Shown: positions 6,924 to 34,569 of the stretch, one piece after another
Layout of the letters: every line of letters begins with the position of its first letter
Numbering within the stretch: the stretch's first letter is position 1
Source of the DNA: a virus
Direction: 5' to 3' (one strand)
Virus record (IMG/VR): IMGVR_UViG_3300022746_000018
DNA length: 64,000 bases
Translations under genes and position numbers: made by a program
The notes under the pieces: generated by a model
What the model saw: only the letters and a program-made list of their open reading frames with translations
Told to the model about the DNA's origin: nothing
The model's database searches: none

Positions 6924-6995
6924 GCCCCCATAGGATAGTGGTTAGTCTTCTGGTCTTTCATACCAGCGGTGAGAGTTCGATTCTCTCTGGGGGTG
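6924..6995 (+). tRNA. tRNA-Glu (anticodon TTC)
   Basis: Hand-folded cloverleaf. Acceptor GCCCCCA/TGGGGGT, anticodon loop CTTTCAT, T arm GAGAG-TTCGATT-CTCTC. Confidence 0.8.
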
Positions 6996-7013
6996 CTTCG
7001 GGGGTCGGCCCCC
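6996..7013. repeat. G4-N4-C4 element, copy 9
   Basis: CTTCGGGGGTCGGCCCCC immediately 3' of tRNA-Glu. Confidence 0.8.
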
Positions 7014-16151: not shown

Positions 16152-17318
16152 TTAGTCTCCCTTTACGTTAATAATCTGTCTTAGTGTGTGTCTAATCTTT
16201 ACTAAATCTTTTGCATCTTCCATAACAACATCAATATCTTTGTATGCATTTGGATGTTCGTCAATGAATGCATCGGAGTGTGACCATTCAATACCCTCCA
16301 TCATAGCATCCAAAGACTCTTTTGTAAAGGTCTTACGTGCTTCATTGCGAGAATATTCACGTCCAGCCCCATGTGGTGCAGTGCAGAATGATAACCTATT
16401 TCCAAGTCCCTCAACTACATACGAGGCAGTTCCCATTGATCCTGGAATAAGACCCATCTGTCCTTCATTGGCAGAGATAGCACCCTTACGAGTTATCCAC
16501 AAGTCTTTGCCCCAATGATTCTCAGGCTGAGTAAAGTTGTGATGACAGTTAATTTCTTCAATGATCTCAAAGTCTCCTGCGTGGTGCTTGAAAGCCTTCT
16601 TGACACGCTCCATCATTACTTCACGATTCTTAAATGCAAACTTCTGTGCCCAAGTCATTTCAGCAATATAGCGATCGAATTCTGGAGTGCCTTCTACAAG
16701 GTATGCCAAGTCTGGATCTACAAGGATAATGAAGTTCTTCTTAGCATACTCTTGTGCAACAGCAATGTGATGTGTAGCAATCTTGTTACCAACTCCACGT
16801 GAACCTGAGTGCAGGAATAGCCAGATAGACCCCTCTTCATCTTTCGTAATCTCAATAAAGTGATTGCCAGATCCAAGCGAACCAATCTGGTGTGTCCAGT
16901 TGCTTGCATACTCAGATGGATTAAATCCTGCGTCCAATGCAGACTCTAAAAGTTCTTCTGCTGCATCAAGTGCGTCTGGCTTGACTGTCTGATTATGCTT
17001 AAAAGCTGACAGTGGAATAGCAGACTCAATTGACTCTCGTAATCTTTTAAGGTCCACGGTAGCCAAATCATCTACAGTCTTATTAGTCTTAATAGCCATC
17101 ATTCCACAACCAATATCCACGCCAATTGCAGCTGGCATAATTGCTCCCTGCGTAGGAATTACAGAACCGACAGTTGACCCCTTGCCAAGGTGTGCGTCTG
17201 GCATTAAGGCTAGGTGTGGAAATATGAACGGCATTGATGAAGTCACTTTAGCCTGTTCAAGTGTCTTTTCATCTAAGATGGATGCCCAGTTAAATAGTTT
17301 GTTAGTTATTTGTTTCAC
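16152..17318 (-). CDS. rtcB: RtcB-family RNA 3'-phosphate ligase
   Basis: MPDAHLGKGSTVG, GCGM and GSGNHFIE motifs typical of RtcB. A GTG at 17318 follows AAGGAGAG and overlaps the upstream stop (GTGA). Confidence 0.9.
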   Translation of the reverse strand: MKQITNKLFNWASILDEKTLEQAKVTSSMPFIFPHLALMPDAHLGKGSTVGSVIPTQGAIMPAAIGVDIGCGMMAIKTNKTVDDLATVDLKRLRESIESAIPLSAFKHNQTVKPDALDAAEELLESALDAGFNPSEYASNWTHQIGSLGSGNHFIEITKDEEGSIWLFLHSGSRGVGNKIATHHIAVAQEYAKKNFIILVDPDLAYLVEGTPEFDRYIAEMTWAQKFAFKNREVMMERVKKAFKHHAGDFEIIEEINCHHNFTQPENHWGKDLWITRKGAISANEGQMGLIPGSMGTASYVVEGLGNRLSFCTAPHGAGREYSRNEARKTFTKESLDAMMEGIEWSHSDAFIDEHPNAYKDIDVVMEDAKDLVKIRHTLRQIINVKGD

Positions 17319-17512
17319 TTGTTCTCTCCTTTGATAACATCCTGTAACCATTCAAGACTACTTACAACCTCTGGATAGTCGCTGTTTTCAATGAATTCAT
17401 CGATGATGCCATTGATGCGTTCACGCTCTTGCTTTGCCCCAAGGTCGATGTCCTCTTGGCGAAGTGCTTGCCCCTGACGGACAAGTTCTCTTAGGTGTTC
17501 TTCCCTGCTCAT
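17315..17512 (-). CDS. hypothetical protein (65 aa)
   Basis: Track ORF. Confidence 0.7.
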   Translation of the reverse strand: MSREEHLRELVRQGQALRQEDIDLGAKQERERINGIIDEFIENSDYPEVVSSLEWLQDVIKGENK

Positions 17513-18564: not shown

Positions 18565-18565
18565 G

Positions 18566-18638
18566 TGCCCCCAGTAGGGATCGAACCTACGGCCTAGAGA
18601 TTAGAAGTCACTCGCTCTTTCCACTGAGCTATGAGGGC
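18566..18638 (-). tRNA. tRNA-Arg (anticodon TCT)
   Basis: Hand-folded. Anticodon loop CUUCUAA, T arm GUAGG-UUCGAUC-CCUAC, one U-U in the anticodon stem. Confidence 0.75.
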
Positions 18639-18642
18639 TTAG

Positions 18643-18715
18643 TCCCCCAGGGGAATTTCGAAATCCCGACCCTTCGATTAAAAGTCGAATGCTACTGCCT
18701 CTGAGCTACTGGGGG
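18643..18715 (-). tRNA. tRNA-Lys (anticodon TTT)
   Basis: Hand-folded. Anticodon arm UUCGA-CUUUUAA-UCGAA and a perfect acceptor. Unusual U53-U61 in the T stem. Confidence 0.7.
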
Positions 18716-18732
18716 TAGTTATTAAGTTATAG

Positions 18733-18813
18733 TGCTCCAAGTGAGATTCGAACTCACAATCCTTTCGGCAATTGATTTTAAGTCAATCGTGTATACCATT
18801 CCACCATTAGAGC
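18733..18813 (-). tRNA. tRNA-Leu (anticodon TAA), type II
   Basis: Hand-folded. Anticodon loop CUUAAAA and a 13-nt variable arm with a CC-GAAA-GG stem. Confidence 0.8.
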
Positions 18814-18902: not shown

Positions 18903-19454
18903 TTATAGAGTTGTGATTAAAGAGTCTATTTGTTTATGCAACTCTTCTATCGAACCGTTATTCAATATTACACCATCAAATGGGAAGTTGTCAAGTGCTG
19001 TCTCAGAATTGTGTGCATTTACTGCTTCAACTCCATCCTTAACTACCCTGAAAACCTTTCCGTAATAAGACTTAATCTGAGCAAACTCATTAGGAAATCG
19101 AACATCTGTAAACACTACCTGACTATCAGAACTAACTTTGTTCTGTTGCCATGCTTGATGAACCCAAAAATCTGTTCCAAACATTTGTCTGCCAACCTCA
19201 GTTCCCATTCTTTGCAGTAGTCCACGAACCTGTGGTGACGATTGCTTAACCAACTCCCAGCCAAGACTATCTACAGCAGAACGAAGATGAACTCCTGGAA
19301 CCTCTGGGATATCAGAAATTATTGGGTCAAGTCTATACAGTGCTTCACGCAATGGGTCTGCAAATGCGATACGTTTGAAGCCATAGTTTGTAACCAAATG
19401 CTGTGCAATAGTATCTTTGCCTGTTTGAGCGTATCCGCTAAGACCAATAATCAT
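18903..19454 (-). CDS. deoxynucleoside monophosphate kinase-like P-loop protein
   Basis: Internal ATG (19454) of the track ORF, ATGA coupling. GLSGYAQTGKDT Walker A; resembles phage dNMP kinases. Confidence 0.7.
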   Translation of the reverse strand: MIIGLSGYAQTGKDTIAQHLVTNYGFKRIAFADPLREALYRLDPIISDIPEVPGVHLRSAVDSLGWELVKQSSPQVRGLLQRMGTEVGRQMFGTDFWVHQAWQQNKVSSDSQVVFTDVRFPNEFAQIKSYYGKVFRVVKDGVEAVNAHNSETALDNFPFDGVILNNGSIEELHKQIDSLITTL

Positions 19455-19630
19455 TGCTTTGTTCCTGTTCCACGATTCATACCTGCAACATAACCTGCCT
19501 GGAATGCCTTCAGCTCTGCCTCTGTTGGTGGAAGAGCCAAGGTCACAATCCAATTCTCAGTATCAATCTTTGCTTTACGAATGATTGAATTAAGGAGACG
19601 CTCTTGTTCTCGCTTTGTCTGCCTACTCAT
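19451..19630 (-). CDS. hypothetical protein (59 aa)
   Basis: Track ORF 19451..19642; the ATG at 19630 overlaps the thyX stop. Confidence 0.6.
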   Translation of the reverse strand: MSRQTKREQERLLNSIIRKAKIDTENWIVTLALPPTEAELKAFQAGYVAGMNRGTGTKQ

Positions 19631-20294
19631 GAAGTGCCTCAAATGTCTTTGGGAATGCCTGGTGTGCTAGATCTTTAACAGCATGAGCATACTCCTGGAT
19701 CTCTACCTGTGCATCATGCTCTAGTCGCTGGTCAAGGAATGTCATTACTCCCTGTAGAGAAGTTGTCCAACGCCAACGAACATACATTCCATATGCAGGT
19801 AGGAATAGACGTGCAATCTCTGGAGCAATGTTATCATTCATAGCATCATGATACAGCTTGGTTCCCTGAACAATAAGTTCATTTAGCTTATTAGTATAAT
19901 ATGCTCCATTAGAGAAGTGGATTGGTTCTCCACTACCCTGCTTGCTATTCTCTGGCTTGGAACGCCATGAGGATGCACTAGGAACGTAGAACTCTTCTTG
20001 CTCCGTAATATAACGGCGTGAGCTTTCATTCCAGCCATTCTGGTCGTCTACGTGCGTTGAACCAACGGCATACTTCCACCACTGTCTTGCAACAAATAGT
20101 GGTGCATATACCTCAAATGTGAGGGCTGCGTGACGAAATGGTGACGTGTGACCCTCACGGACGAGGAAGTCAATAAGCTTTGCATCTTTGGGGGTAAACT
20201 CCTCAGACTCTTTATCATACGATACACGAGCAGCATTAACGACAGATAGGTCATTACCAAGAGTATCAACAAGACGAACATAACCTTTATCCAA
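19623..20294 (-). CDS. thyX: flavin-dependent thymidylate synthase
   Basis: RHAALTF and ESSRRY (ThyX motif) are present. Confidence 0.9.
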   Translation of the reverse strand: MDKGYVRLVDTLGNDLSVVNAARVSYDKESEEFTPKDAKLIDFLVREGHTSPFRHAALTFEVYAPLFVARQWWKYAVGSTHVDDQNGWNESSRRYITEQEEFYVPSASSWRSKPENSKQGSGEPIHFSNGAYYTNKLNELIVQGTKLYHDAMNDNIAPEIARLFLPAYGMYVRWRWTTSLQGVMTFLDQRLEHDAQVEIQEYAHAVKDLAHQAFPKTFEALHE

Positions 20295-21145: not shown

Positions 21146-21158
21146 TCTTTCCTCCTTG

Positions 21159-21229
21159 CTCCCCCACCTGGACTCGAACCAAGACTAAAGGCTCCAAAGG
21201 CCTCTGTGCTGCCATTACACCAAAGGGGA
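21159..21229 (-). tRNA. tRNA-Gln (anticodon TTG)
   Basis: Hand-folded. Anticodon arm GAGGC-CUUUGGA-GCCUU, U1-A72, T arm CUUGG-UUCGAGU-CCAGG. Confidence 0.7.
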
Positions 21230-21234
21230 ATGTG

Positions 21235-21308
21235 TGCTCTAGGTGGGATTCGAACCCACAACCTTTTGATCCTAAGTCAAACGCCTCTACCAGTTGGGCT
21301 ACAAGAGC
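21235..21308 (-). tRNA. type-I tRNA with Leu anticodon TAG (5-nt variable loop)
   Basis: Hand-folded. Perfect anticodon arm UUUGA-CUUAGGA-UCAAA, variable loop AGGUU, T arm GUGGG-UUCGAAU-CCCAC, A73. Confidence 0.65.
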
Positions 21309-21312
21309 ATCA

Positions 21313-21391
21313 GTGGCATGTCAGGGAATCGAACCCTTCTAGCAAATTGCACAGGATTTACAGTCCCGTCTCTGTCCCAGCAGCCATGCCA
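21313..21391 (-). tRNA. tRNA-Tyr (anticodon GTA), type II, atypical junctions
   Basis: Anticodon arm CGGGA-CUGUAAA-UCCUG and a variable arm with a GCA-AAU-UGC stem. The acceptor/D and acceptor/T junctions do not fold canonically by hand. Confidence 0.55.
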
Positions 21392-21396
21392 TATGG

Positions 21397-21482
21397 CGGA
21401 AGATGTGAGATTCGAACTCACGGTAGGTTTTGCCTACGCTTGTTTTCAAGACAAGTGCCTTAGTCCACTAGGCTAATCTTCC
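21397..21482 (-). tRNA. tRNA-Ser (anticodon TGA), type II
   Basis: Anticodon arm CUUGU-CUUGAAA-ACAAG, a long variable arm GUAGG...CCUAC, and a perfect acceptor. Confidence 0.85.
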
Positions 21483-21524: not shown

Positions 21525-21944
21525 TTATTTAGAAAATGCTGACCCAGACCAAACATTGTCTGATTTAGTTCCCATTGATCCGCCAGGACCACCAGAAGCA
21601 AATGCTCCTGTGCTATTATTCGCATCTGCTGAAATACCCCTACGAGCTTTTAGCTTTTTAGCTCTACGACTTTTACGCTTACCGCCTGGATTTACATCAG
21701 GATATTTAATGCCTACTCCTGGGTAGTGTGGATTTGGTGTAGACGATGGATTGATTCCAGATCCTGTTAGTAATCCGTCTCCCATTGCTTTATCTATTCC
21801 TGGCTCATTGATATGAAGAGCTGCCATTTGCTTCATAGCATCATCTTGTGATGGGTGGCATCCCATAACTTCACCAGTTTTAGTTTTAACTACAGGGTAT
21901 CCAGAGCAACCGTGAGAACCCTTTTCTCCGATTGAGTAAGGCAT
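21525..21944 (-). CDS. hypothetical protein (139 aa) with basic Gly-rich tail
   Basis: Track ORF, ATGA-type coupling. Confidence 0.75.
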   Translation of the reverse strand: MPYSIGEKGSHGCSGYPVVKTKTGEVMGCHPSQDDAMKQMAALHINEPGIDKAMGDGLLTGSGINPSSTPNPHYPGVGIKYPDVNPGGKRKSRRAKKLKARRGISADANNSTGAFASGGPGGSMGTKSDNVWSGSAFSK

Positions 21945-22399
21945 TAGTCCTGCTCAACATCCTTGGCAGATGCACGAAGCTGCCAGCACCACTTCTGGTG
22001 CATAGTCTGACGGTCTCCAAGGAAGTTTGCTAGTCCATACTGCTTTGCTGCAGTTGCATTGTCGCAAGCAGCGACTATTGCAGCAGTAACTAGGTCTAGA
22101 GACTCACAAAGATCATTAGCCATATCGATTGGGTCTGAGGACACTGAAGCCTCTGGAACGATGCTAAGAGATGCTAAACGTGATAGAGAGAATGGAGCAT
22201 ATGCATTTACATCAAGCATACGAATCCATTCTGCAAATGTGTCAATAGCACCATCTAGATCCTCGTAGATGTCTCCAAACTTATCGTGCCATTGAGGGAA
22301 ATCGTCCCCTTCACAGTTCCAGTGGAAACCATGTGCCTTAAATTTAAGGGCTACGGTGCTGGCTTCAAGCACCTTTAGGGTATCAATTAACTCATTCAT
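21944..22399 (-). CDS. dps: Dps-like ferritin-fold protein
   Basis: LKFKAHGFHWNCEGDDFPQWHDKFGDIYEDLD matches the Dps ferroxidase-site pattern. Leaderless start. Confidence 0.8.
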   Translation of the reverse strand: MNELIDTLKVLEASTVALKFKAHGFHWNCEGDDFPQWHDKFGDIYEDLDGAIDTFAEWIRMLDVNAYAPFSLSRLASLSIVPEASVSSDPIDMANDLCESLDLVTAAIVAACDNATAAKQYGLANFLGDRQTMHQKWCWQLRASAKDVEQD

Positions 22400-22454: not shown

Positions 22455-22901
22455 TTAGCCAATATTAATTGACTTTGGCTTTTCTTCTTCTGGAACTGAT
22501 CTTACCAGAGAAATAGAAAGAATTCCATCTGCAACGGATGCATCAAGAACTTCTGTATAGTCTGGCAAAGTAAACGAACGAGAGAACTTGCGAGTGGCAA
22601 TACCCTTGTGTAAATACTTTGCTCCATCAATTAGTTCATCGATATCATCAATAGTTTTTTCACCAACGATTGACAATACCCCCTTGTGTGTCGTTACCTG
22701 GATTTCTTCACGAGAAAACCCTGCAACTGCAAACTCAAATAGCCATTCGTCATTATCAATTTGAATAATGTTGTAAGGTGGGTAGTTGGTTGCTCCAGTT
22801 ACTGGGCTCTTTGCGAGTGTGTTGAACATCTTATCAAATTCCTGACTAAGTGTTCCAATGTTGGGGAATCCCCCATTAGGTCCATAAGTTAATGTAACCA
22901 T
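22455..22901 (-). CDS. small heat-shock protein (Hsp20 / alpha-crystallin)
   Basis: AVAGFSREEIQV...GVLSIVGEK...RSFTLPD...DGILSISL pattern. The ATG at 22901 lies 9 nt after AGGAG; the track start at 22910 abuts the RBS. Confidence 0.85.
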   Translation of the reverse strand: MVTLTYGPNGGFPNIGTLSQEFDKMFNTLAKSPVTGATNYPPYNIIQIDNDEWLFEFAVAGFSREEIQVTTHKGVLSIVGEKTIDDIDELIDGAKYLHKGIATRKFSRSFTLPDYTEVLDASVADGILSISLVRSVPEEEKPKSINIG

Positions 22902-22954
22902 ATATATCATCTCCTATTAAGCGAGTTGTGCATCCCATTTGGCGATGCATATAT

Positions 22955-23693: not shown

Positions 23694-23919
23694 CTTCTCT
23701 AACTACCAACACAATAGCTCCATTAGCCTCAAATGCCATTTTTACCTTAGACATGTATTCTACAGCCTTACGCTTATCAAAATCATTCAGTCTCATAAAG
23801 ACATCTTCTTTAGCTAAGATTGTGATAAACATGTCATTGTCAAAAACATCTACATAAAAGCCTTTTGGACAGTAAGAGTCTAGAGAGCGAAAAGCCCTCT
23901 TCATGTCGTTTGTATACAT
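23674..23919 (-). CDS. hypothetical protein (81 aa)
   Basis: Track ORF. Confidence 0.7.
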   Translation of the reverse strand: MYTNDMKRAFRSLDSYCPKGFYVDVFDNDMFITILAKEDVFMRLNDFDKRKAVEYMSKVKMAFEANGAIVLVVREGGKDVE

Positions 23920-24215
23920 TATTTGTCTCTATCTATTGTTAGATTTGCCCATTTTTCAGCCCAGTCTTGTTTGGATTTGTGTCTATTAAATTCCCTGGAA
24001 ATTTTTCCATTCTCTAAATAAACTCCACCCCAAACACCCCAAGCTTTTTGAGAGATGCCAACAGCAAAACAGTGTCTAACCAACGGACAACTAGCACATA
24101 GTTCATCTATGTCTCGTCTTAGTTCGTATGATTCATCATTTTCATAATCATCATAAAACAAGTTGGTGTCAAATGATTTACATATAGCATCGTCTTTCCA
24201 AGCATTATTACTCAT
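23919..24215 (-). CDS. whiB: WhiB-like Fe-S transcription factor
   Basis: C-x(n)-C-x2-C-x5-C pattern (ICKSFD...CASCPLVRHC) followed by GVWGG. Confidence 0.85.
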   Translation of the reverse strand: MSNNAWKDDAICKSFDTNLFYDDYENDESYELRRDIDELCASCPLVRHCFAVGISQKAWGVWGGVYLENGKISREFNRHKSKQDWAEKWANLTIDRDK

Positions 24216-25157: not shown

Positions 25158-25186
25158 ATTATACGACTATAGTTACTTGTTGTCAA
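25158..25186 (-). promoter_or_regulatory. consensus promoter TTGACA-N17-TATAAT inside the 3' end of the upstream gene
   Basis: -35 at 25186-25181 and -10 at 25163-25158. Confidence 0.7.
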
Positions 25187-25598
25187 GGTAATCTGTGCAA
25201 ATTCCAAAGCAATCATATTCCCCAGAATTTTCTAGGTCTACGATTACGGACCAATCTCCAACTTGCTTGCCTGGATATGTCCAAACGTAATTTTGACTAG
25301 TCATAGTAAAGTCATCTTCTTGATGCCAAAAGTAATTAAAAGAGTTGCCCATCTTGGCAAAATGATCTAGAGCTTCAAAATTTTTACAATGAATCCAAAG
25401 ATGAAGAATATTCTTGAGCAAGAAATCTTCTGTGATTAAATATTGTGCATGGTCGTGCCCAGCCCAAAGATATTGACCCATCTTCCATACATCTATCTCA
25501 ACATCATAACCCTTATCCATAGCTTCTTCTAGATACCAAAGTTGGTTTTCATGAATGCTAGGACCGTTGGTGTTTCCTCTATGTGCGATCTTTCTCAA
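25173..25598 (-). CDS. glycerophosphodiester-phosphodiesterase-like (GDPD fold) protein
   Basis: AHRGN...HENQL...G.D.EIDVW...AGHDH pattern. A TTG at 25598 lies 6 nt after GGAGG; the track ATG at 25628 would overlap the upstream gene by 50 nt. Confidence 0.6.
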   Translation of the reverse strand: MRKIAHRGNTNGPSIHENQLWYLEEAMDKGYDVEIDVWKMGQYLWAGHDHAQYLITEDFLLKNILHLWIHCKNFEALDHFAKMGNSFNYFWHQEDDFTMTSQNYVWTYPGKQVGDWSVIVDLENSGEYDCFGICTDYLDNK

Positions 25599-26289
25599 GA
25601 TATGCCTCCAAATCTTCAGGTGTTCCAATACCGTGCATTTCTTCTACAAAATATGGAATCACGATATGACCATCATTGATGGCTTCATTATAAACTGGAC
25701 AGATATAGAATTCATTATTAGTTCTAATATTCTTTTCAATCATTTGTTCTGCATATTTAACATAGTCGGAACCATGCTGGAATCCATAGACACCTACACT
25801 GGCATTGTCACTAATAACTTCTTTTTCTGCTACCTTTGTAACCATACCGCCATTAATTTGAGCAAAGGACCACTTGGGATCATTGGCTTTAAATAGGGCT
25901 ATAGCGTCCCTAGAACGGAGCAGGGAGGTAAATACCAAACTATCCCATATGATTACCTGGTCTGAATTTGCAATTAGCAAAGGAGCATCATTATTGATCA
26001 AATCTTTTGCAGCAAGAGTAGTTCTTGCAGCACCATCTGTAAGTCCATCTATCTCAACAATCTTGCATCCTGGAACAAATTCATCCAATACATCTTGAAG
26101 ATGATATTTTACAGAGTGTTCTTTTTGCACAATAAAAATATAATTGCCATCAATATTAAGACTATCAATTACAGCCTTAATCATCGGAACACCGTTAACA
26201 TCAATAAGTGGTTTTGGCTTTTCGTATCCCTTTTGGGCAAATCTAGATCCCAGACCTGCCATTGGTATAAGTATGTTTATTTTACTCAA
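25579..26289 (-). CDS. sugar-phosphate nucleotidyltransferase
   Basis: N-terminal ILIPMAGLGSRF...KPKPLI signature of the NTP_transferase fold. Confidence 0.8.
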   Translation of the reverse strand: MSKINILIPMAGLGSRFAQKGYEKPKPLIDVNGVPMIKAVIDSLNIDGNYIFIVQKEHSVKYHLQDVLDEFVPGCKIVEIDGLTDGAARTTLAAKDLINNDAPLLIANSDQVIIWDSLVFTSLLRSRDAIALFKANDPKWSFAQINGGMVTKVAEKEVISDNASVGVYGFQHGSDYVKYAEQMIEKNIRTNNEFYICPVYNEAINDGHIVIPYFVEEMHGIGTPEDLEAYLEKDRT

Positions 26290-26905
26290 GATAACTGATC
26301 ACCATATTTCTTACAAAACGCATAGTGATATCTGCTCTACTTTCTACTTCTACAAGATGTCCACCAGATGCCCTGGCTGCTTCTCTTCCGATATTGCTAT
26401 CTTCAAATATTATAGCATTCTCTGGGGCTACGCCAAGCATAGCCATACACTTATTATAGATTTCAGGATTAGGCTTGGGATTACTTACATCCTCATTACT
26501 CAAAGATACATCTATATATCTCCAGATACCTAATGATTGTAAACAGTTAGTCAGGGTGTCTCTGATGCTATTACTAGCTACTCCCACCTTAAGCCCACTA
26601 TCCTGGAGATATTTAAATATATCTATAAGCTCTGGATCTGATTCAAGACTCTCAAACATCACAGACGAATATTCCTGTTTAAGTTGCCAGACATACTGAT
26701 GTAACTCTTTTGGAAGCCCCTTGAGATGTGTGAGTAAATCTAATTTAGATTTAGTAGTCATTCCCTCATAGATAGTGTCTTGCTCTTCTTGTGATATAAC
26801 ATATTTATTATTTACATTGGCGAGGGCAAGATTGAGAGCATTAAAATGTAACTCTTTGCTTTCAACAAGGACTCCATCAAGATCAAATATAACTGCTTTA
26901 TTCAT
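26282..26905 (-). CDS. HAD-superfamily phosphatase / phosphomutase
   Basis: VIFDLDGVLVES motif I and FEDSNIGREAA motif IV. Confidence 0.8.
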   Translation of the reverse strand: MNKAVIFDLDGVLVESKELHFNALNLALANVNNKYVISQEEQDTIYEGMTTKSKLDLLTHLKGLPKELHQYVWQLKQEYSSVMFESLESDPELIDIFKYLQDSGLKVGVASNSIRDTLTNCLQSLGIWRYIDVSLSNEDVSNPKPNPEIYNKCMAMLGVAPENAIIFEDSNIGREAARASGGHLVEVESRADITMRFVRNMVISYLE

Positions 26906-28025
26906 GGGTAATAAAGTCTTTCAAGCCTGGAACATTTTCAATAATGCTCTTTATCTTTTCTGCTTTTCTATGGAAATTAGGGATTGATACGTATACGATA
27001 TCTCTAAAGAATGCTAAGTTGTGATAGAACATATGAAGTTCTTGAACTAAATTAGGATCTAATGCAATGTCTTCAGGGTCTATTTCATTTTCTGCAAAAT
27101 ATCCTTCTGTAATTAAAGGTGAGTGAGTAATCAGTGGGGTAGCTAGTTCAATCAGGATACCACCTGGCTTCATAAACATGGCATTGGTTAATCCAGATCC
27201 AGTGACTCCAGCCACAATCCTAGCTGAATTAAATAATGCAATTTGTTCCTCAAAAGTTTGGATAGACTCACCATATACTATATCAAATCCCATTTCAAGA
27301 AAAACTTGCTCAATTTCTTGATGGTTGTCCATTCTATTGTCATTAGGATATGAAAAGTCTTGAGTGTGGTGTCCAAAATTTGAATCTGCAACCCTGGCTC
27401 TGGAAATAAAGATCTTTCTTTCTCCAGACTTATCTGCTGCTATAGTGAGATGCTTTGTCAAATATTCATAAAGCAGGTCAAGTCTTGCACCAGAATGGAA
27501 TGGGAATAGAACTTTTGAGAACTTATTTATATAAATACCATCTACCTTAGACAGGTCTACCAGGGTATACTTTACTTTGTCTTTGTCTAAACATGCTAAG
27601 AAATAATTAACAAGATCCCATTCAACCTTGTCTAACCTATCTGCAATATCGGTTATATCTAAGATTAACTCAATATTCTTTGGAGAGATTTGCAAAGCAT
27701 ATACAATTTCTGCAAGATCGTCTGCTACAACGTGATAGAAGCTATTAACTAATGGCTTAAAAAGCTTGATATTGTCATTTACAAAGTTCAATACATTTGG
27801 TCCAACATCCTGATATCCAGGAGCAATTGCTGCACTAAGCCCTTTGGCTAAATGCTTGGTTCCATGCTTGGCCTCTGGATCTGTAAATACCATTGTTGAT
27901 ATTTCATCAACAAAGGGTAGATGATTTTTGTAACCTTTTGGGATATTGGTCTCTAGCACCCTAGAGATACCTTCTCCGCCTCTTCCAAAAACTGTAAATG
28001 CTTTCTTGATAGCAGTCTTATTCAT
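26898..28025 (-). CDS. glycosyltransferase, GT61/DUF563-like
   Basis: RKIFISRA...EQIALFNSARIVAGVTGSGLTNAMFMKPGGILIEL pattern recalled from GT61/DUF563 proteins. Confidence 0.65.
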   Translation of the reverse strand: MNKTAIKKAFTVFGRGGEGISRVLETNIPKGYKNHLPFVDEISTMVFTDPEAKHGTKHLAKGLSAAIAPGYQDVGPNVLNFVNDNIKLFKPLVNSFYHVVADDLAEIVYALQISPKNIELILDITDIADRLDKVEWDLVNYFLACLDKDKVKYTLVDLSKVDGIYINKFSKVLFPFHSGARLDLLYEYLTKHLTIAADKSGERKIFISRARVADSNFGHHTQDFSYPNDNRMDNHQEIEQVFLEMGFDIVYGESIQTFEEQIALFNSARIVAGVTGSGLTNAMFMKPGGILIELATPLITHSPLITEGYFAENEIDPEDIALDPNLVQELHMFYHNLAFFRDIVYVSIPNFHRKAEKIKSIIENVPGLKDFITHE

Positions 28026-29143: not shown

Positions 29144-29194
29144 TATTCCTCCTAATGTAGAGTTTTCTACATATTAATTTTAGCATTACTTTGG

Positions 29195-29266
<72 letters not shown>

Positions 29267-29276
29267 GTATTATTTA

Positions 29277-29305
29277 ATTATAGCACTAGAACTACTTGCC
29301 GTCAA
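29277..29305 (-). promoter_or_regulatory. promoter TTGACG-N17-TATAAT driving tRNA-Thr and the endolysin
   Basis: -35 at 29305-29300, inside the HNH gene 3' end; -10 at 29282-29277. Confidence 0.65.
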
Positions 29306-29726
29306 GTGGTTTGTGTGGTTTAATTAAAAGCTTCATGTTTGCCTGTTCTGGAGTGCGTCCACCTTTTTTCAGATTACATTCCCTGCAGCAAGCAACAGTA
29401 TTAAGCCAGGTAGACATTCCATCCTGGCATCTTGGAATAACGTGATCTACAGTAGTGGCATGTTTCTTACAGTATGCACAAACATTATTATCTCTACGAA
29501 GCACTGCTTCCTTGGAGTATTGATTCTTACGAATCTCATACTTCCAACGAGCATAGATATACTTAACCAGCTGGACAGCCTTTGGGATAATAAAAGAACC
29601 CACAGAATCATCCGTGGGCGTGATAATGCTTACTACACCCCGATGAAGCATGGTTAGTGCTTTCTTAACAGATACTGTCATTAGAAGTTCTGTTCCGCCT
29701 TGGTTATATACTGCTACGTTTGTCAT
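29292..29726 (-). CDS. HNH endonuclease
   Basis: CAYC...DHVIP...N....CC..CN..K pattern. Confidence 0.85.
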   Translation of the reverse strand: MTNVAVYNQGGTELLMTVSVKKALTMLHRGVVSIITPTDDSVGSFIIPKAVQLVKYIYARWKYEIRKNQYSKEAVLRRDNNVCAYCKKHATTVDHVIPRCQDGMSTWLNTVACCRECNLKKGGRTPEQANMKLLIKPHKPLDGK

Positions 29727-29741
29727 AATGATTCTATTATA

Positions 29742-30470
29742 CTATATGTCCATGCTTTTGAAAAATAGACGTTTTATATGATTCTTAATATTATAAATCT
29801 TACTTGGTCCACGACCATCGATGTAAAACTTTTGGAAAACATATTTTTCGGAATAGGTTCTAATTAGTTTATGTCTAGAGTCAGCATACTCGTTAAAGTC
29901 TTTATACAATTCTGGATTTTCACGAATGTCTTTTGCTTTTAATGAAAAGTTTTCGACTGTGTTTCTTTCAATTGGAAAAAAACAGAATAGTGGATCTCCC
30001 TTTTTAAATTCTACCGTGCCAGGTTCAATAAACTTAAAGTTATAGGTAAAAGTAAATGGCAACCAGTCAGTCTCTACGATAGCATCTAGTGGTTTTAGGA
30101 TGCCATAGTCATGATTTGGAATACCACGAATATAAAGAGAATAATTTTCTGGTGTTGTAATCAAAAAGTCTGGAAGAATTGTAAGAACAGATTCTCCAAA
30201 ATGAGTAACAAATCTTACTGGATCAAATTTTGGATCATCTGAGAATACCTCTACATCATTGTGCTTTGTTCCTCCATACCAAGAAACGGTAAAATCTACT
30301 GGAGATGCTACAGCCCAACCATATTGATTGGCAATGCCTAATGGCAAACACTTATATACAAACTTCTCTTTGCTATTATGCATCCAGTCTCTTTGCATGG
30401 TAAGGGGAACAATATCAAAATATTTATTCTCTATGCCGTCAAGGTAATTTGCAATAATTTCTTTAGACAT
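29742..30470 (-). CDS. conserved hypothetical protein (DUF6065-like, tentative)
   Basis: 242-aa track ORF. The family name is from memory only. Confidence 0.75.
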   Translation of the reverse strand: MSKEIIANYLDGIENKYFDIVPLTMQRDWMHNSKEKFVYKCLPLGIANQYGWAVASPVDFTVSWYGGTKHNDVEVFSDDPKFDPVRFVTHFGESVLTILPDFLITTPENYSLYIRGIPNHDYGILKPLDAIVETDWLPFTFTYNFKFIEPGTVEFKKGDPLFCFFPIERNTVENFSLKAKDIRENPELYKDFNEYADSRHKLIRTYSEKYVFQKFYIDGRGPSKIYNIKNHIKRLFFKSMDI

Positions 30471-30489
30471 TCTATCTCTTTCTTACTTG

Positions 30490-30563
30490 TGGGAAATACA
30501 GGATTCGAACCTGTGACATTTTGCTCCGTAGGCAAACGCTCTAATCCTCTGAGCTAATTTCCC
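30490..30563 (-). tRNA. tRNA-Arg (anticodon ACG)
   Basis: Clean cloverleaf with anticodon arm UUUGC-CUACGGA-GCAAA. Confidence 0.85.
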
Positions 30564-30731
30564 ATTTGCCAATCGTGCACCGTTTTATGTTCGCATACCA
30601 TTGGCTGTATATCCTAGTCCTCGCATTAGGCATAGGGTCCATGAGTCTGAACACTTTCACCCTACCGCTGGGACAGCGTAATTTTCGGATACACATATCT
30701 TAGTATAAGTTGTTCAGACTTATACCTTGAG
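30564..30731 (-). ncRNA. structured inter-tRNA spacer 1 (putative stable RNA)
   Basis: No ORF of 60 aa or more. Hairpin GTATAAG/CTTATAC spans 30703-30725. Its loop TGTTCAGA (30711-30718) is complementary to TCTGAACA (30646-30653). Confidence 0.3.
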
Positions 30732-30805
30732 CGATCTGTATGGGACTTGAACCCACGACCCCCACCGTGACAGGGTGGTGCTCTAACCAACTGAGCTAAC
30801 AGACC
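30732..30805 (-). tRNA. tRNA-Asp (anticodon GTC)
   Basis: Anticodon arm CCACC-CUGUCAC-GGUGG. G-U pairs occur in the acceptor and T stems. Confidence 0.8.
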
Positions 30806-30997
30806 AAATGTGAGAAGGTGGATTGTCTATTACCACCAAGGAGAAGTCTAGATACCATTAGATATCGCCTTAATCCTACCACAGCCTTGCTCCGCTAAGA
30901 GCAGGGACGCTAATCCCAGCCATGTGCCTTTCTCATTCCATCTAGACAAGGAACTTCGTTCAGCCATTCTCCAGACCTCTCGTCAGAGATCTGTTTG
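30806..30997 (-). ncRNA. structured inter-tRNA spacer 2 (putative stable RNA)
   Basis: Several hairpins, including GGTGG...CCACC, CCTTGCTC...GAGCAGGG and CAGACCTCT...AGAGATCTG. Confidence 0.3.
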
Positions 30998-31068
30998 AGC
31001 GAATAGCGAGAATCGAACTCGCATTATCTGCTTGGAAGGCAGAAGTTTTACCACTAAACTATATTCGC
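30998..31068 (-). tRNA. tRNA-Gly (anticodon TCC)
   Basis: Anticodon arm UCUGC-CUUCCAA-GCAGA with a perfect acceptor. Confidence 0.85.
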
Positions 31069-31232
31069 AGTTGAGATGTCAGATTAATCAGATCTACATC
31101 TCTGAGTCGTTTCCTAAGACGAGTGACCAACTCCGAACCGATAACGAGAGATTCCTACACGCTTACTGTATCGCTGTAAGGGCGTTCATTTGTCCGAAAT
31201 GAAACGGTTGTGATAGTGATTATCTATCAACG
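31069..31232 (-). ncRNA. structured inter-tRNA spacer 3 (putative stable RNA)
   Basis: Hairpins GAGATGT...ACATCTC and CGT-TTCCTAAG-ACG. No ORF of 60 aa or more. Confidence 0.3.
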
Positions 31233-31305
31233 CTGGTCCAGTAGGATTCGAACCTACAACCGATCGGTTAACAGCCGATTGCACCGCCAATTGTGCTATG
31301 GACCA
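31233..31305 (-). tRNA. tRNA-Asn (anticodon GTT)
   Basis: Anticodon arm AUCGG-CUGUUAA-CCGAU. The 5' end overlaps the endonuclease VII stop by 10 nt. Confidence 0.85.
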
Positions 31306-31727
31306 AGATACTCTATAAGTCTTTGTAAAACGACTTTAGAATCTTTTAACAATCCCAATGCCGTATTACATTGATTACAAAGTATGCCACGAATACAACT
31401 TCCACAACTTCTATTGCCTGGGCAACAAGAATGGTCATGGTCTATATTTGTAGCTTTGTTTGTTTTACAAGTATAGCATTTGCCATCAAATTTGTCAACC
31501 ATTTCATCGAACTTTTCTTTTGAAATGTGATGCCTTTTCCAGTTAAAATCTTTACCTGTATTTATTCTATTTTTAATTGTTCTTTGTTCGTCATTATTTT
31601 TATAGTAATTAACCATGTAATCAGAGTGGCATTGCTTACAAATATTTCTTCTGCCATCTTTATAGGCTTTACCCTTGGCAAAAAGCTCAATGTCCTTGCT
31701 CTGATTACATTTATTACATATCTTCAT
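31296..31727 (-). CDS. recombination endonuclease VII
   Basis: NIDHDHSCC...CGSCIRGILCNQCNTALG, the Endo VII zinc/HNH-like signature. Confidence 0.85.
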   Translation of the reverse strand: MKICNKCNQSKDIELFAKGKAYKDGRRNICKQCHSDYMVNYYKNNDEQRTIKNRINTGKDFNWKRHHISKEKFDEMVDKFDGKCYTCKTNKATNIDHDHSCCPGNRSCGSCIRGILCNQCNTALGLLKDSKVVLQRLIEYLGP

Positions 31728-32392: not shown

Positions 32393-32569
32393 CTACTCCT
32401 CCTCTCCTTGTGAATTTCTAAATGGGTAAGTTACTGCCCACAAACCTAGTGTTCCTAGAATGCAGTATCCTACTATAGTTTTGGCTGAACCTTCTAGAAC
32501 AATCCATGCTACAAACATACCTAGAAGAGTCCAGGCTTGTTCAAGAATATCTTTAATTATTTTTTTCAT
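32393..32569 (-). CDS. small membrane protein (58 aa)
   Basis: Hand-translated MKKIIKDILEQAWTLLGMFVAWIVLEGSAKTIVGYCILGTLGLWAVTYPF... ATGA overlap with the PA14 gene stop. Confidence 0.55.
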   Translation of the reverse strand: MKKIIKDILEQAWTLLGMFVAWIVLEGSAKTIVGYCILGTLGLWAVTYPFRNSQGEEE

Positions 32570-34569
32570 CTTGTTTCCCTCCTATTAGGTTTATTTGTTT
32601 CTGTTTTTTCATTACCGCCAGAACTACCGCCTGACGAGCCACCAGAGCCTCCTGTGGACCCTGTAGAAGCTGCTGAGGTTGCTGCACCTGTAGCAGCACT
32701 TACGGCTGCTCCTGTGGCTACAACGGCTGCGATAACCTCTTTCTTGGCTTTCTCACGAGTAGCTGGTGCCATGTCTGCACCAACATTTCCCATAAAGTTA
32801 ATAGCTGCAATGGCTGCTACGGCAGCTTGCCCTACACCTGGAATAGCAGCAAGGGCTGGATCAACTTGAATATCGTCTGCTTGAGCAGCAACAAACAGGG
32901 CATCTAGGGCTTTTTCATATTCTGGAGAGCCTTCCTTGGCTGTCGCCAAGACTTCATTTGCTGCTAAGACTAATTGCGTTACTTCGGCTGAAGACAATTC
33001 TTGAGGATCAATTGAAGAAATGTCTACAGGTAGCTTAGGTTCTGGTTGAACTTCTGGGGTTGATACTTGCTCTGGAGTTCGTGTCGGGATTGGCTCAGGC
33101 GTTGCTGGCTCTTGAGTAGGTTCCGAGGACGGCGTAGGTGTAGATGTTGGCTCTTCCGTAGGTGGAATGGTTGGTTCCACGGTTGGTTCTTGAGTTGGGA
33201 CAACTACTGGCTCCTCTGTTGGCTCTACCGTTGGTAACGGTGTTGGTTCTATTATACCTGTTGTTTCAGATGGTGCAGGTGTGGGAGTAGGCGTAGGAGT
33301 TGCATTAGCAGCTGCTTCTGCAGCTTGTCTGGCAGCCTCTTCTGCTGCCAATTGAGCTTGTCTAGCTGCTTCTTCTGCTGCTGCGACTGCGGCAAGTCTA
33401 TCTCTTTCTGCTTGAGCAGCAATAGCTGCTTGCTCTGCAGCAATCCTATCCGCCTCTGCTTGAAGTGCTGCTGCTTGCTCTGCTTGTTGCTGTGCAAGTT
33501 GTTCTGCAGCAATCCTATCTGCTTCAGCTTGAGCAGCTTGTTGTGCTGCAAGAGCATCTGCTGCTGCTTGCTGGGCAATCCTATCTGCTTCTGCTTGTTG
33601 TTCTGCTAATAACGCTGCAGCTTCTGCATCTGCTTGAGCCTGAGCTGCTTGCTGTTCTGCCAAAATTCTAGCATTTTCTGCATCTATTAATGCTTGAGCA
33701 TCATCAACAGCTTGTTGCAGTAATGGCATGGCTTGAGTTGCAGTGTCTAGTCTAATTTGTGCTTGTTGTTGTGCGATTTGAGCAGCATCCAATTCTTGTT
33801 GTGCTTGATTTAAAATAAGTTGTTTTTCTTGGACTATTACTAATAATGCTGGATCATTAACCATTATAGTAGTAGCTGTTTGACCAAACCATGCTGCAGG
33901 AACTACCCCCCAGTTACCTGAATTTTGATAATATAAAGTAGAACATGCCCCTCCACCATTTTCATAGAACCAGGCATCAAGAGTGTAAGCATGACCAGCT
34001 TCAAGATTTATTGGATACCAGTTACCTCCACAACCTTTGTCTCGCCATTCGGGAATAACTACCTGACCATCTAAGGTCATGTAAAACCCATCATCTGCTA
34101 TGTTGCGGAAATAGTATTGTCCACTTGTCGGCACAGTTAATGTTCCATAATAATGAATAGTTACCCAGTCAGAATTACATCCCATGACAGATCCACTACC
34201 CCAGTTAGCAGAGATTTGGCTAACAGTGTCGTGACGACATAATTGCCATGCCTCTGGAGTTCTGCTAATTATATTATTATAAATATCTACAGATAGTCCA
34301 GATCCACTAGAAGTTGTTTGTGAAATTAAATTAGTATCATAGTTAGTTTGTGCTATTGTTAGTTCTTCTTGAGCAGCAACTACGGCTGCTAATTTATTTA
34401 CAACCAATAAGTCTGCATCTGCTTTAGCTTGGGTAGCGTCAGATAGCTCTTGCTGCCCTGCCAAAAGAGCCGATTGAGCTTCTTCTAGTGTTTGTGCTTT
34501 TGCAGGGGTTATTATAAAGAGGGATATAGTTGCTAGTGTTATTGCTGTTAAAAATCTAAGAGTTTTAAT
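32566..34569 (-). CDS. secreted PA14-domain coiled-coil protein with PT-rich linker and C-terminal hydrophobic anchor
   Basis: Track ORF 32566..34464 (TTG start). The same frame stays open 35 more codons up to a TAG at 34582-34584. Those codons encode a Sec-type signal peptide (IKTLRFLTAITLATISLFIITPAKA). AGGAG lies 9 nt before an ATT at 34569. PA14-like block GTLTVPTSGQYYFRNIADDGFYMTLDG. Confidence 0.7.
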   Translation of the reverse strand: MKTLRFLTAITLATISLFIITPAKAQTLEEAQSALLAGQQELSDATQAKADADLLVVNKLAAVVAAQEELTIAQTNYDTNLISQTTSSGSGLSVDIYNNIISRTPEAWQLCRHDTVSQISANWGSGSVMGCNSDWVTIHYYGTLTVPTSGQYYFRNIADDGFYMTLDGQVVIPEWRDKGCGGNWYPINLEAGHAYTLDAWFYENGGGACSTLYYQNSGNWGVVPAAWFGQTATTIMVNDPALLVIVQEKQLILNQAQQELDAAQIAQQQAQIRLDTATQAMPLLQQAVDDAQALIDAENARILAEQQAAQAQADAEAAALLAEQQAEADRIAQQAAADALAAQQAAQAEADRIAAEQLAQQQAEQAAALQAEADRIAAEQAAIAAQAERDRLAAVAAAEEAARQAQLAAEEAARQAAEAAANATPTPTPTPAPSETTGIIEPTPLPTVEPTEEPVVVPTQEPTVEPTIPPTEEPTSTPTPSSEPTQEPATPEPIPTRTPEQVSTPEVQPEPKLPVDISSIDPQELSSAEVTQLVLAANEVLATAKEGSPEYEKALDALFVAAQADDIQVDPALAAIPGVGQAAVAAIAAINFMGNVGADMAPATREKAKKEVIAAVVATGAAVSAATGAATSAASTGSTGGSGGSSGGSSGGNEKTETNKPNRRETR

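Follow-up and report, generated by a model that had tools for sequence, protein, structure and literature searches.

The 64 kb of viral DNA analysed here (the window) are part of Ga0228703_1000073, a contig of ~98 kb from an uncultured phage (JGI sample 3300022747; IMG/VR record IMGVR_UViG_3300022746_000018), and carry on the minus strand a cassette of four open reading frames (ORFs), which an earlier note on this DNA had described as a possible modification pathway. As read from the sequence, the four ORFs at 25173-28025 lie exactly where that note had placed them; they and the initiation signals within them are as follows.

26898..28025, minus strand: GT61-like glycosyltransferase, 375 residues, ATG start
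26282..26905, minus strand: HAD-IA protein (HAD), 207 residues, ATG start
25579..26289, minus strand: predicted sugar-1-phosphate nucleotidyltransferase (NTase), 236 residues, TTG start
25173..25598, minus strand: minimal GDPD-like protein (mGDPD), 141 residues, TTG start
26299..26303, minus strand: Shine-Dalgarno-like GGTGA within the HAD gene, before the NTase TTG at 26289
25605..25609, minus strand: Shine-Dalgarno GGAGG within the NTase gene, 6 nt before the mGDPD TTG at 25598

The four annotations (GT61, HAD, nucleotidyltransferase and GDPD-like fold) are upheld by Pfam, profile and Foldseek searches, and the proposal that the genes form a single pathway, making and transferring a nucleotide-activated sugar, is strongly backed by conserved synteny and by gene fusions. 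HAD, NTase and mGDPD recur together in cells and viruses and are referred to below as the module.

Products of the four genes

The glycosyltransferase matches Pfam Glyco_transf_61 (PF04577) well above the cutoff (60.3 bits versus 27; E value 3e-16) and belongs to a narrow family of 46 homologues of ~375 residues, all of which carry PF04577. Foldseek comparison of its AlphaFold2 (AF2) model (pLDDT 79.8) with the PDB returns chains of POMGNT2, itself a GT61 enzyme, as the top 16 matches (E 5e-7 to 1e-5), at a TMq of only ~0.4, and TibC and WaaC next in the ranking; a single-sequence search of the PDB gave spurious matches only. No transmembrane segment or signal peptide was found in the sequence, and the model depicts a soluble GT-B enzyme. 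Homologues accompanied by the module occur mainly in the closest phage relatives (loci L062-L065, L070-L072, L083, L109 and L132), sometimes in two or three copies, and the protein is the transferase particular to this phage lineage.

The HAD protein scores 106.9 bits against Pfam HAD_2 (cutoff 23.8, E 1.6e-30), and motifs I-IV are present, with FDLDG, SNS, KP and EDS invariant in the family alignment. Its best matches in the PDB are TM_1254, CbbY and beta-phosphoglucomutase (beta-PGM); with the family profile, beta-PGM scores nearly as high as TM_1254 over the full length. The scores remain below the cutoffs of the beta-PGM equivalog TIGR01990 (86.7 versus 189.4 bits) and of the subfamily model TIGR02009 (104.8 versus 153.35), and the protein may be described as a putative phosphatase or phosphomutase of the beta-PGM-like subfamily. 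With the HAD domain of a cyanophage HAD-NTase fusion it shares 50% identity, with the second, stand-alone HAD found there 35%, and it is the orthologue of the N-terminal domain of the fused HAD-NTase proteins.

The NTase matches phrog_3980 (E 2.9e-66) and displays the G-x-G-x-R signature as MAGLGSRF. Its best structural relative is PDB entry 4EVW, an uncharacterised nucleoside diphosphate (NDP)-sugar pyrophosphorylase from V. cholerae, which is reached with E 2.8e-17 by the single sequence and 2e-28 by the family profile; GMPP, HddC, RmlA, GalU and GlmU follow in the profile ranking, and the characterised relatives ranked are all anomeric sugar-1-phosphate enzymes. Homologues in SAR11, SAR86, Prochlorococcus and bacteria of the candidate phyla radiation (CPR) are ~55% identical to it. 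The protein is accordingly annotated as a predicted sugar-1-phosphate nucleotidyltransferase. Public gene calls start it at an internal ATG, giving 227 residues; the TTG is the likelier start, since homologues of 236-237 residues span 100% of the 236-residue protein and its N-terminal strand, INILIPMAG, aligns with the fused HAD-NTase homologues.

The smallest product, mGDPD, matches phrog_34507 (E 1e-23) and represents a family of 2877 clusters at 50% identity, nearly all of 140-160 residues; an in-frame upstream TTG at 25628 would extend the window protein to 151. The family conserves HRG, EN, ExD, HD, HCK and WH motifs and a C-terminal C-x-D-Y. Among the catalytic residues, His6, Arg7 and Asp49 are conserved in at least 90% of sequences and Glu17, Asn18, Glu34, Asp36 and His48 are invariant, from which mGDPD is predicted to keep the full phosphodiesterase catalytic set. 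The family profile matches the GDPD of PDB entry 7e0v (E 0.0026) over the first 50 residues, and the AF2 model (pLDDT 94.9; 12 strands, four helices) has GDPDs as its top Foldseek matches in both the PDB and BFVD. Compared with the GDPD family proper (PF03009), mGDPD thus has the catalytic set and the fold, and lacks a Pfam match and the full-size (beta/alpha)8 barrel of ~220-250 residues; the model can be read as a stripped-down GDPD barrel.

The overlaps between consecutive genes, ATGAATAA (8 nt), TTGAGTAA (8 nt) and 20 nt, are exactly those given by the earlier note, which had deduced from them that the four products are likely to be made stoichiometrically. This deduction is not supported: 11 of the 31 junctions in the surrounding 20 kb overlap, 15 of 31 have a spacer of at most 2 nt, and the genes for an M23 peptidase, a Zn-ribbon protein and a DUF7455 protein upstream of the cassette are packed equally tightly. 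Overlap being common in this phage, it was rejected as a sign of special coupling. A programmed frameshift joining HAD and NTase was also considered and is less likely than separate initiation, because the split is stable in relatives (L062-L065 and L072), where NTase has its own Shine-Dalgarno sequence and TTG.

Linkage, fusions and variant modules

The above-chance signal is not the overlaps but the conserved linkage, since HAD, NTase and mGDPD stand side by side in over 130 independent loci, which come from several phyla and from many viral contigs. The mGDPD profile, run against GTDB with a single genome for each species, yielded 59 cellular loci, the majority from Pelagibacter/SAR11 and the others from SAR86, Prochlorococcus, Bacteroidota, several CPR lineages, Melainabacteria and one actinomycete metagenome-assembled genome (MAG). 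HAD and NTase homologues lie immediately beside mGDPD in ~50 of the 59, arranged as HAD-NTase-mGDPD or as mGDPD-HAD-NTase. In IMG/VR, mGDPD is encoded by at least 584 contigs; among the best 80 of these, 66 have all three genes and a further 11 have NTase and mGDPD. The survey of co-occurrence suggested earlier thus finds the trio linked in cells as well as in viruses, and the combination, far from being unique to this phage, is widespread in cyanomyoviruses.

Fusions point in the same direction. In most relatives HAD and NTase make up one bifunctional protein. Across the loci examined, 99 ORFs of 440-480 residues encode fused HAD-NTase proteins, with which the HAD and NTase of the window are colinear, the split point corresponding to the linker. 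Occasional fusions join mGDPD to GT61 (P0341), to DUF7796/WavE-like domains in both orders (P0421 and P0384), to methyltransferases of several types, among them a giant-virus FkbM protein, and to a domain resembling sulfotransferases. Fusions and synteny together place all four genes of the window in one pathway; on the same grounds the possibility that they are unrelated morons was rejected. In related actinophages, GT61 and the module occupy the same slot beside a WhiB block in split, fused or alternative form, which indicates that the locus is swappable. One further sequence, L003 (CANGYR010000020.1, labelled as a Chitinophagaceae MAG), shares with the window both the families of the WhiB neighbourhood and the GT61/HAD-NTase/mGDPD cassette, and its DNA probably comes from a relative of this actinophage that was wrongly binned, not from Bacteroidota.

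Elsewhere the place of GT61 is taken by DUF7796-like, WavE-like, GT4, GT2, GT6, GT9, GT25 or PF11397 transferases, and the neighbours of the module comprise, besides GT4, GT2, GT6, GT9, GT25, WavE-like and DUF7796-like proteins, NAD-dependent epimerases and O-methyltransferases. In one Pelagibacter example the module adjoins a double GT4 protein of 704 residues, between housekeeping genes. The profile of the DUF7796-like family gave no significant match in the PDB.

The module also exists in other forms. A second one consists of an unfused NTase, a cupin of ~108 residues and mGDPD, the nearest solved relatives of the cupin including KdgF and a small protein deposited as a mannose-6-phosphate isomerase. 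At its fullest, this form also has a PfkB-like kinase and a small HAD, and its NTase carries a fused RpiB domain. Fusions of NTase to RpiB, a sugar-phosphate isomerase, and to an HAD-IIIB/PNKP-like phosphatase were observed at L020:6530-7687 and L009:6584-7678. In some SAR11 and other genomes (L026:9203-10393, L027, L045 and L053) a RuBisCO-like protein stands in the place of HAD, directly after mGDPD and an unfused NTase; this protein is closest to archaeal form III RuBisCO (2cwx, E 1.9e-40).

These variants bear on the nature of the product. The pathways to ADP- and GDP-heptose follow a logic of isomerase, kinase, phosphatase and nucleotidyltransferase. The same logic governs the NDP-arabinose pathway of phages (PMC13326640), and its recurrence in the gene set of the fullest variant supports an NDP-sugar as the product. 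As to which sugar, the RpiB fusion, the form III RuBisCO-like neighbour in SAR11 and the CbbY-like HAD suggest a pentose. GMPP and HddC as nearest relatives of NTase, the cupin resembling mannose-6-phosphate isomerase, the PfkB kinase and neighbours of the GT9 and WavE types point to a manno-hexose or heptose. An aldose that derives from the pentose phosphate pathway, either a pentofuranose or a manno-heptose/hexose, is the best guess.

Proposed pathway and competing readings

The cassette is, on balance, probably a mobile glycan-decoration unit that makes an NDP-sugar, which GT61 transfers to a glycan acceptor facing the cytoplasm. HAD and NTase would convert a phosphorylated sugar of central metabolism to a sugar-1-phosphate and this to the NDP-sugar, HAD acting either as a beta-PGM-like phosphomutase that brings the phosphate to C1 or as a phosphatase that removes the distal phosphate of a host-derived bisphosphate; these roles are proposed because the window version has no kinase or isomerase. 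GT61 would then move the sugar onto a lipid-linked precursor of an envelope glycopolymer, changing the cell surface during infection of a host which WhiB, DUF7455 and an M23 peptidase with a peptidoglycan-binding domain suggest to be an actinobacterium. The lack of a membrane segment in GT61 implies an acceptor facing the cytoplasm, and host envelope glycan precursors would be the most parsimonious target given that the cellular homologues of the module sit in small chromosomal glycan islands; a lipid-linked precursor is accordingly considered the likeliest acceptor and a virion protein a less likely one. Within the same pathway, mGDPD would make or break a phosphodiester or cyclic phosphate on a sugar phosphate or on the transferred residue. 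Candidate steps are the opening of a sugar cyclic phosphate or phosphodiester, feeding or repairing the donor pool, and action on the residue after its transfer. Of all this, the family assignments, the conserved linkage and the fusions are observed; the succession of steps, the acceptor, the sugar and the reaction of mGDPD are inferred from them.

Several points weigh against this interpretation. Members of GT61 act on proteins as well as on polysaccharides, and the acceptor is not readable from the sequence. With no isomerase or kinase in the cassette, the source of the sugar-1-phosphate would depend on the putative mutase or bisphosphatase role of HAD. The window NTase falls below the Pfam cutoffs (24.1 versus 27 and 16.9 versus 21.2 for PF00483 / NTP_transf_3); its fused homologues exceed the PF00483 threshold, with 44-45 bits. 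mGDPD has no match in Pfam at E < 0.1 and none in NCBIfam and is ~100 residues shorter than known GDPDs; its substrate is a guess, and it is hard to see where a phosphodiesterase would fit into an ordinary NDP-sugar pathway. The loci were moreover retrieved by means of mGDPD, and its constancy among them is partly a matter of construction. Finally, the literature on 4EVW, on combinations of HAD, NTase and phosphodiesterase, on the hypervariable regions of SAR11 and on glycosyltransferases of freshwater actinophages yielded no characterisation, which agrees with the statement of the earlier note that it knew of no characterised phage system with exactly this combination.

A more specific proposal, considered rather unlikely, is that the trio constitutes a kinase-free, three-enzyme route to a nucleotide sugar not described before, for example to an NDP-pentofuranose or an NDP-beta-heptose, for which mGDPD would process a bisphosphate or 1,2-cyclic phosphate formed from an intermediate of the pentose phosphate pathway. 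If so, SAR11, SAR86, Prochlorococcus and CPR bacteria, which are the most abundant in aquatic habitats, and their phages would diversify their surface glycans by this route, and no catalytic barrel of the GDPD type smaller than mGDPD would be known.

Among the alternatives to decoration of a host glycan, glycosylation of the virion survives best, with a small but real share of the probability: the NDP-sugar pathway would be the same, and GT61 would O-glycosylate phage capsid or tail proteins while these are still unassembled in the cytoplasm. A GT61 enzyme without a membrane anchor, whose closest solved structure, POMGNT2, is a protein O-glycan transferase, would suit this role, as would the presumed actinobacterial host, glycosylated virions having a published precedent among actinophages in some mycobacteriophages (Freeman et al., 2023, as cited in PMC12801897). 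On the other hand, the cellular homologues of the module belong to chromosomal glycan islands, not to phages, and the cassette is set among host-takeover and replication genes, not among structural genes.

Polyol-phosphate or teichoic-type chemistry, another option raised by the earlier note, loses ground and is now quite improbable. NTase would in this case make CDP-glycerol, CDP-ribitol or a similar activated alkyl phosphate, and mGDPD would supply, transfer or trim the head group of a wall polymer, glycerol phosphate or ribitol phosphate. In favour of this, mGDPD keeps the glycerol-3-phosphate-binding residues of GDPDs, the host would be Gram-positive, and there are weak matches of NTase to IspD (E 0.022) and LicC-type enzymes. 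However, the NTase profile ranks GMPP, HddC, RmlA, GalU and GlmU far above LicC, with IspD and TarI absent from the ranking, and the solved relatives of NTase are anomeric sugar-1-phosphate enzymes, not of the IspD/TarI type. The cassette does not contain the CDP-polyol pathway of teichoic acid synthesis (TagD or TarI-TarJ with TagF/TarL), having no reductase and no TagF/LicD-type phosphotransferase; the carriers of the module are mostly Gram-negative or CPR bacteria, and the sugar-phosphate isomerase and PfkB kinase of the variant modules fit an aldose, not a polyol.

Hypermodification of phage DNA, in which GT61 would transfer the NDP-sugar to a modified base and so block restriction, is very improbable. 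It has a precedent in phages RB69 and DLP3, where an HAD phosphatase, an NTase and glycosyltransferases make arabosylated cytosine (PMC13326640), and the genes for ThyX and a dNMP kinase lie 5-9 kb from the cassette, as had been pointed out together with a MazG gene, of which there is none in the Pfam tables for 15000-38000. ThyX, however, makes ordinary dTMP, and the Pfam tables for the 64-kb window list no ThyA-like hydroxymethylase, hydroxylase or other base-modifying gene, nor the ThyA-like synthase of 5-hydroxycytosine (5hoC) or 5-hydroxymethylcytosine (5hmC) and the SIS (arabinose-5-phosphate isomerase) gene expected of an RB69-type system. A tblastn search with NTase matched no RB69-type phage among 50,697 phage records, and in SAR11, SAR86, CPR bacteria and Prochlorococcus the module is chromosomal, beside lipopolysaccharide and glycan genes of the GT4, GT2, GT9, GT25 and WavE types.

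The weakest alternative, scarcely credible, has mGDPD release glycerol-3-phosphate or act as a phospholipase C, GT61 glycosylate glycerol-3-phosphate or diacylglycerol and HAD remove the phosphate, giving a glycosylglycerol or glycolipid and freeing phosphorus in phosphorus-poor waters; all four activities would be used, the module is carried by aquatic bacteria of oligotrophic habitats and by their phages, and fusions of mGDPD to glycosyltransferases exist, but HAD is fused to NTase and not to a glycosyltransferase, the several glycosyltransferases, methyltransferases and epimerases of the islands point to larger glycans, and the AF2 model of mGDPD shows no membrane-interaction features.

Phage setting and comparison with known systems

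The window has a GC content of ~40% and the cassette one of 36.4%, which is only at the 17th percentile of windows of the same size and was not taken as a sign of recent transfer. The low GC content of the phage fits freshwater low-GC actinobacteria (described in PMC10202952), so the host could be one of these. Megablast of the cassette and of window positions 1-25000 found no near relatives among the deposited phage records, whereas distant and protein-level searches of these records did give matches. The genes that bear on the setting are the following.

19623..20294: ThyX (PF02511), from the Pfam tables
within 18903..19553: dNMP kinase, from the Pfam tables
21944..22399, 22455..22910, 23919..24215, 16152..17351: Dps/ferritin-like, HSP20, WhiB, GroES and RtcB genes, in a minus-strand block shared with the cassette

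According to the Pfam tables, the window also encodes NrdIEF, the alpha subunit of DNA polymerase III, DnaB, primase, RecA and a denV-like protein. Its 13 tRNA genes lie at 18565-18813, 21158-21482, 29192-31305 and 6924-6996, those at 29192-31305 being interspersed with genes for an HNH endonuclease (29292..29726) and an Endonuclease VII-like protein (31296..31727). Just upstream of the cassette are genes for a DUF6065 protein (29742..30470, 242 residues, E 9.5e-59) and for a protein of 632 residues with a weak PA14 match (32566..34464).

Phage glycan genes are usually noted and left unexplained; here, the cassette leads to a compact and highly conserved module, present in SAR11, SAR86, Prochlorococcus, CPR bacteria, cyanophages, freshwater actinophages and a giant virus. 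Phage cassettes of nucleotide-sugar and glycosyltransferase genes are already known, and no description of the module, of a minimal GDPD outside Pfam or of such a breadth of distribution was found in the papers searched. The identity of the product would name a surface sugar of the dominant bacteria of the ocean, likely to be a phage receptor or shield, would show what aquatic phages gain from the pathway and would define a new minimal GDPD enzyme.

Each component has better known counterparts. POMGNT2, the closest solved structure to the GT61 of the window, EOGT and the plant xylan arabinosyl- and xylosyltransferases share its Pfam GT61 domain; the window protein differs from them in being short, soluble and phage-borne, with no stem, transmembrane region or FnIII domain. 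Lactococcus lactis PgmB, TM_1254 and CbbY align with the window HAD over the full length and share the DxDG nucleophile, His20 and the Lys and ED motifs, but where beta-PGM has the cap residue Arg49 the window protein has Thr, and it shows instead a conserved Lys54 and, following the SNS motif, an Arg. The canonical GDPDs GlpQ and UgpQ have in common with mGDPD the HR, EN, ExD and HD motifs and a TDYP-like C-terminal strand, whereas mGDPD has 141 residues instead of ~220-250, HCK instead of ExK and two invariant cysteines, and its genomic context is one of nucleotide-sugar genes and not of glycerol-3-phosphate uptake.

At the level of the pathway, the synthesis of GDP- and ADP-heptose (GmhA, HddA or HldE, GmhB and HddC) offers a close parallel: HddC and GMPP rank among the characterised enzymes nearest to NTase, the variant modules include a kinase of the PfkB type, a small HAD and an NTase with a fused isomerase, and GT9 and WavE-like proteins co-occur with the module. 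The cassette of the window, in contrast, has no kinase or isomerase and its HAD is of subfamily IA, and the isomerase of the variants is RpiB or a cupin, that of the heptose pathway being the SIS-type GmhA. The NDP-arabinose pathway of phages RB69, DLP3 and HY126, which leads to arabinosyl-5-hydroxycytosine DNA (PMC13326640), likewise combines a phage HAD phosphatase, an NTase and GT-B transferases for a nucleotide sugar. It depends, however, on three enzymes that were not seen in the window, namely a 5hoC synthase resembling thymidylate synthase, an arabinose-5-phosphate isomerase and a kinase; its HAD is GmhB-like and not beta-PGM-like, its glycosyltransferases resemble the GT4/BshA type, and it has no GDPD-like gene.

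The nearest counterpart of the whole arrangement is found in the cell-wall or lipopolysaccharide gene islands of T4-like cyanophages (Kyanoviridae: S-CAM9, DSL-LC03, S-PRM1, S-8S53/55/56 and B3/B23), the function of whose islands is equally unproven, the literature only speculating on surface modification. These phages carry HAD, NTase and mGDPD in the order of the window, inside a glycosyltransferase island, with identities of 56-58% for NTase and 48% for mGDPD. Unlike in the window, HAD and NTase form one protein of 461 residues, a second HAD precedes mGDPD, and the transferases of the island are GT6, GT4, GT25, GT11 and DUF7796-like, with no GT61. As S-CAM9, S-PRM1 and DSL-LC03 are in culture and carry the module, it can be tested directly in these cyanophages.

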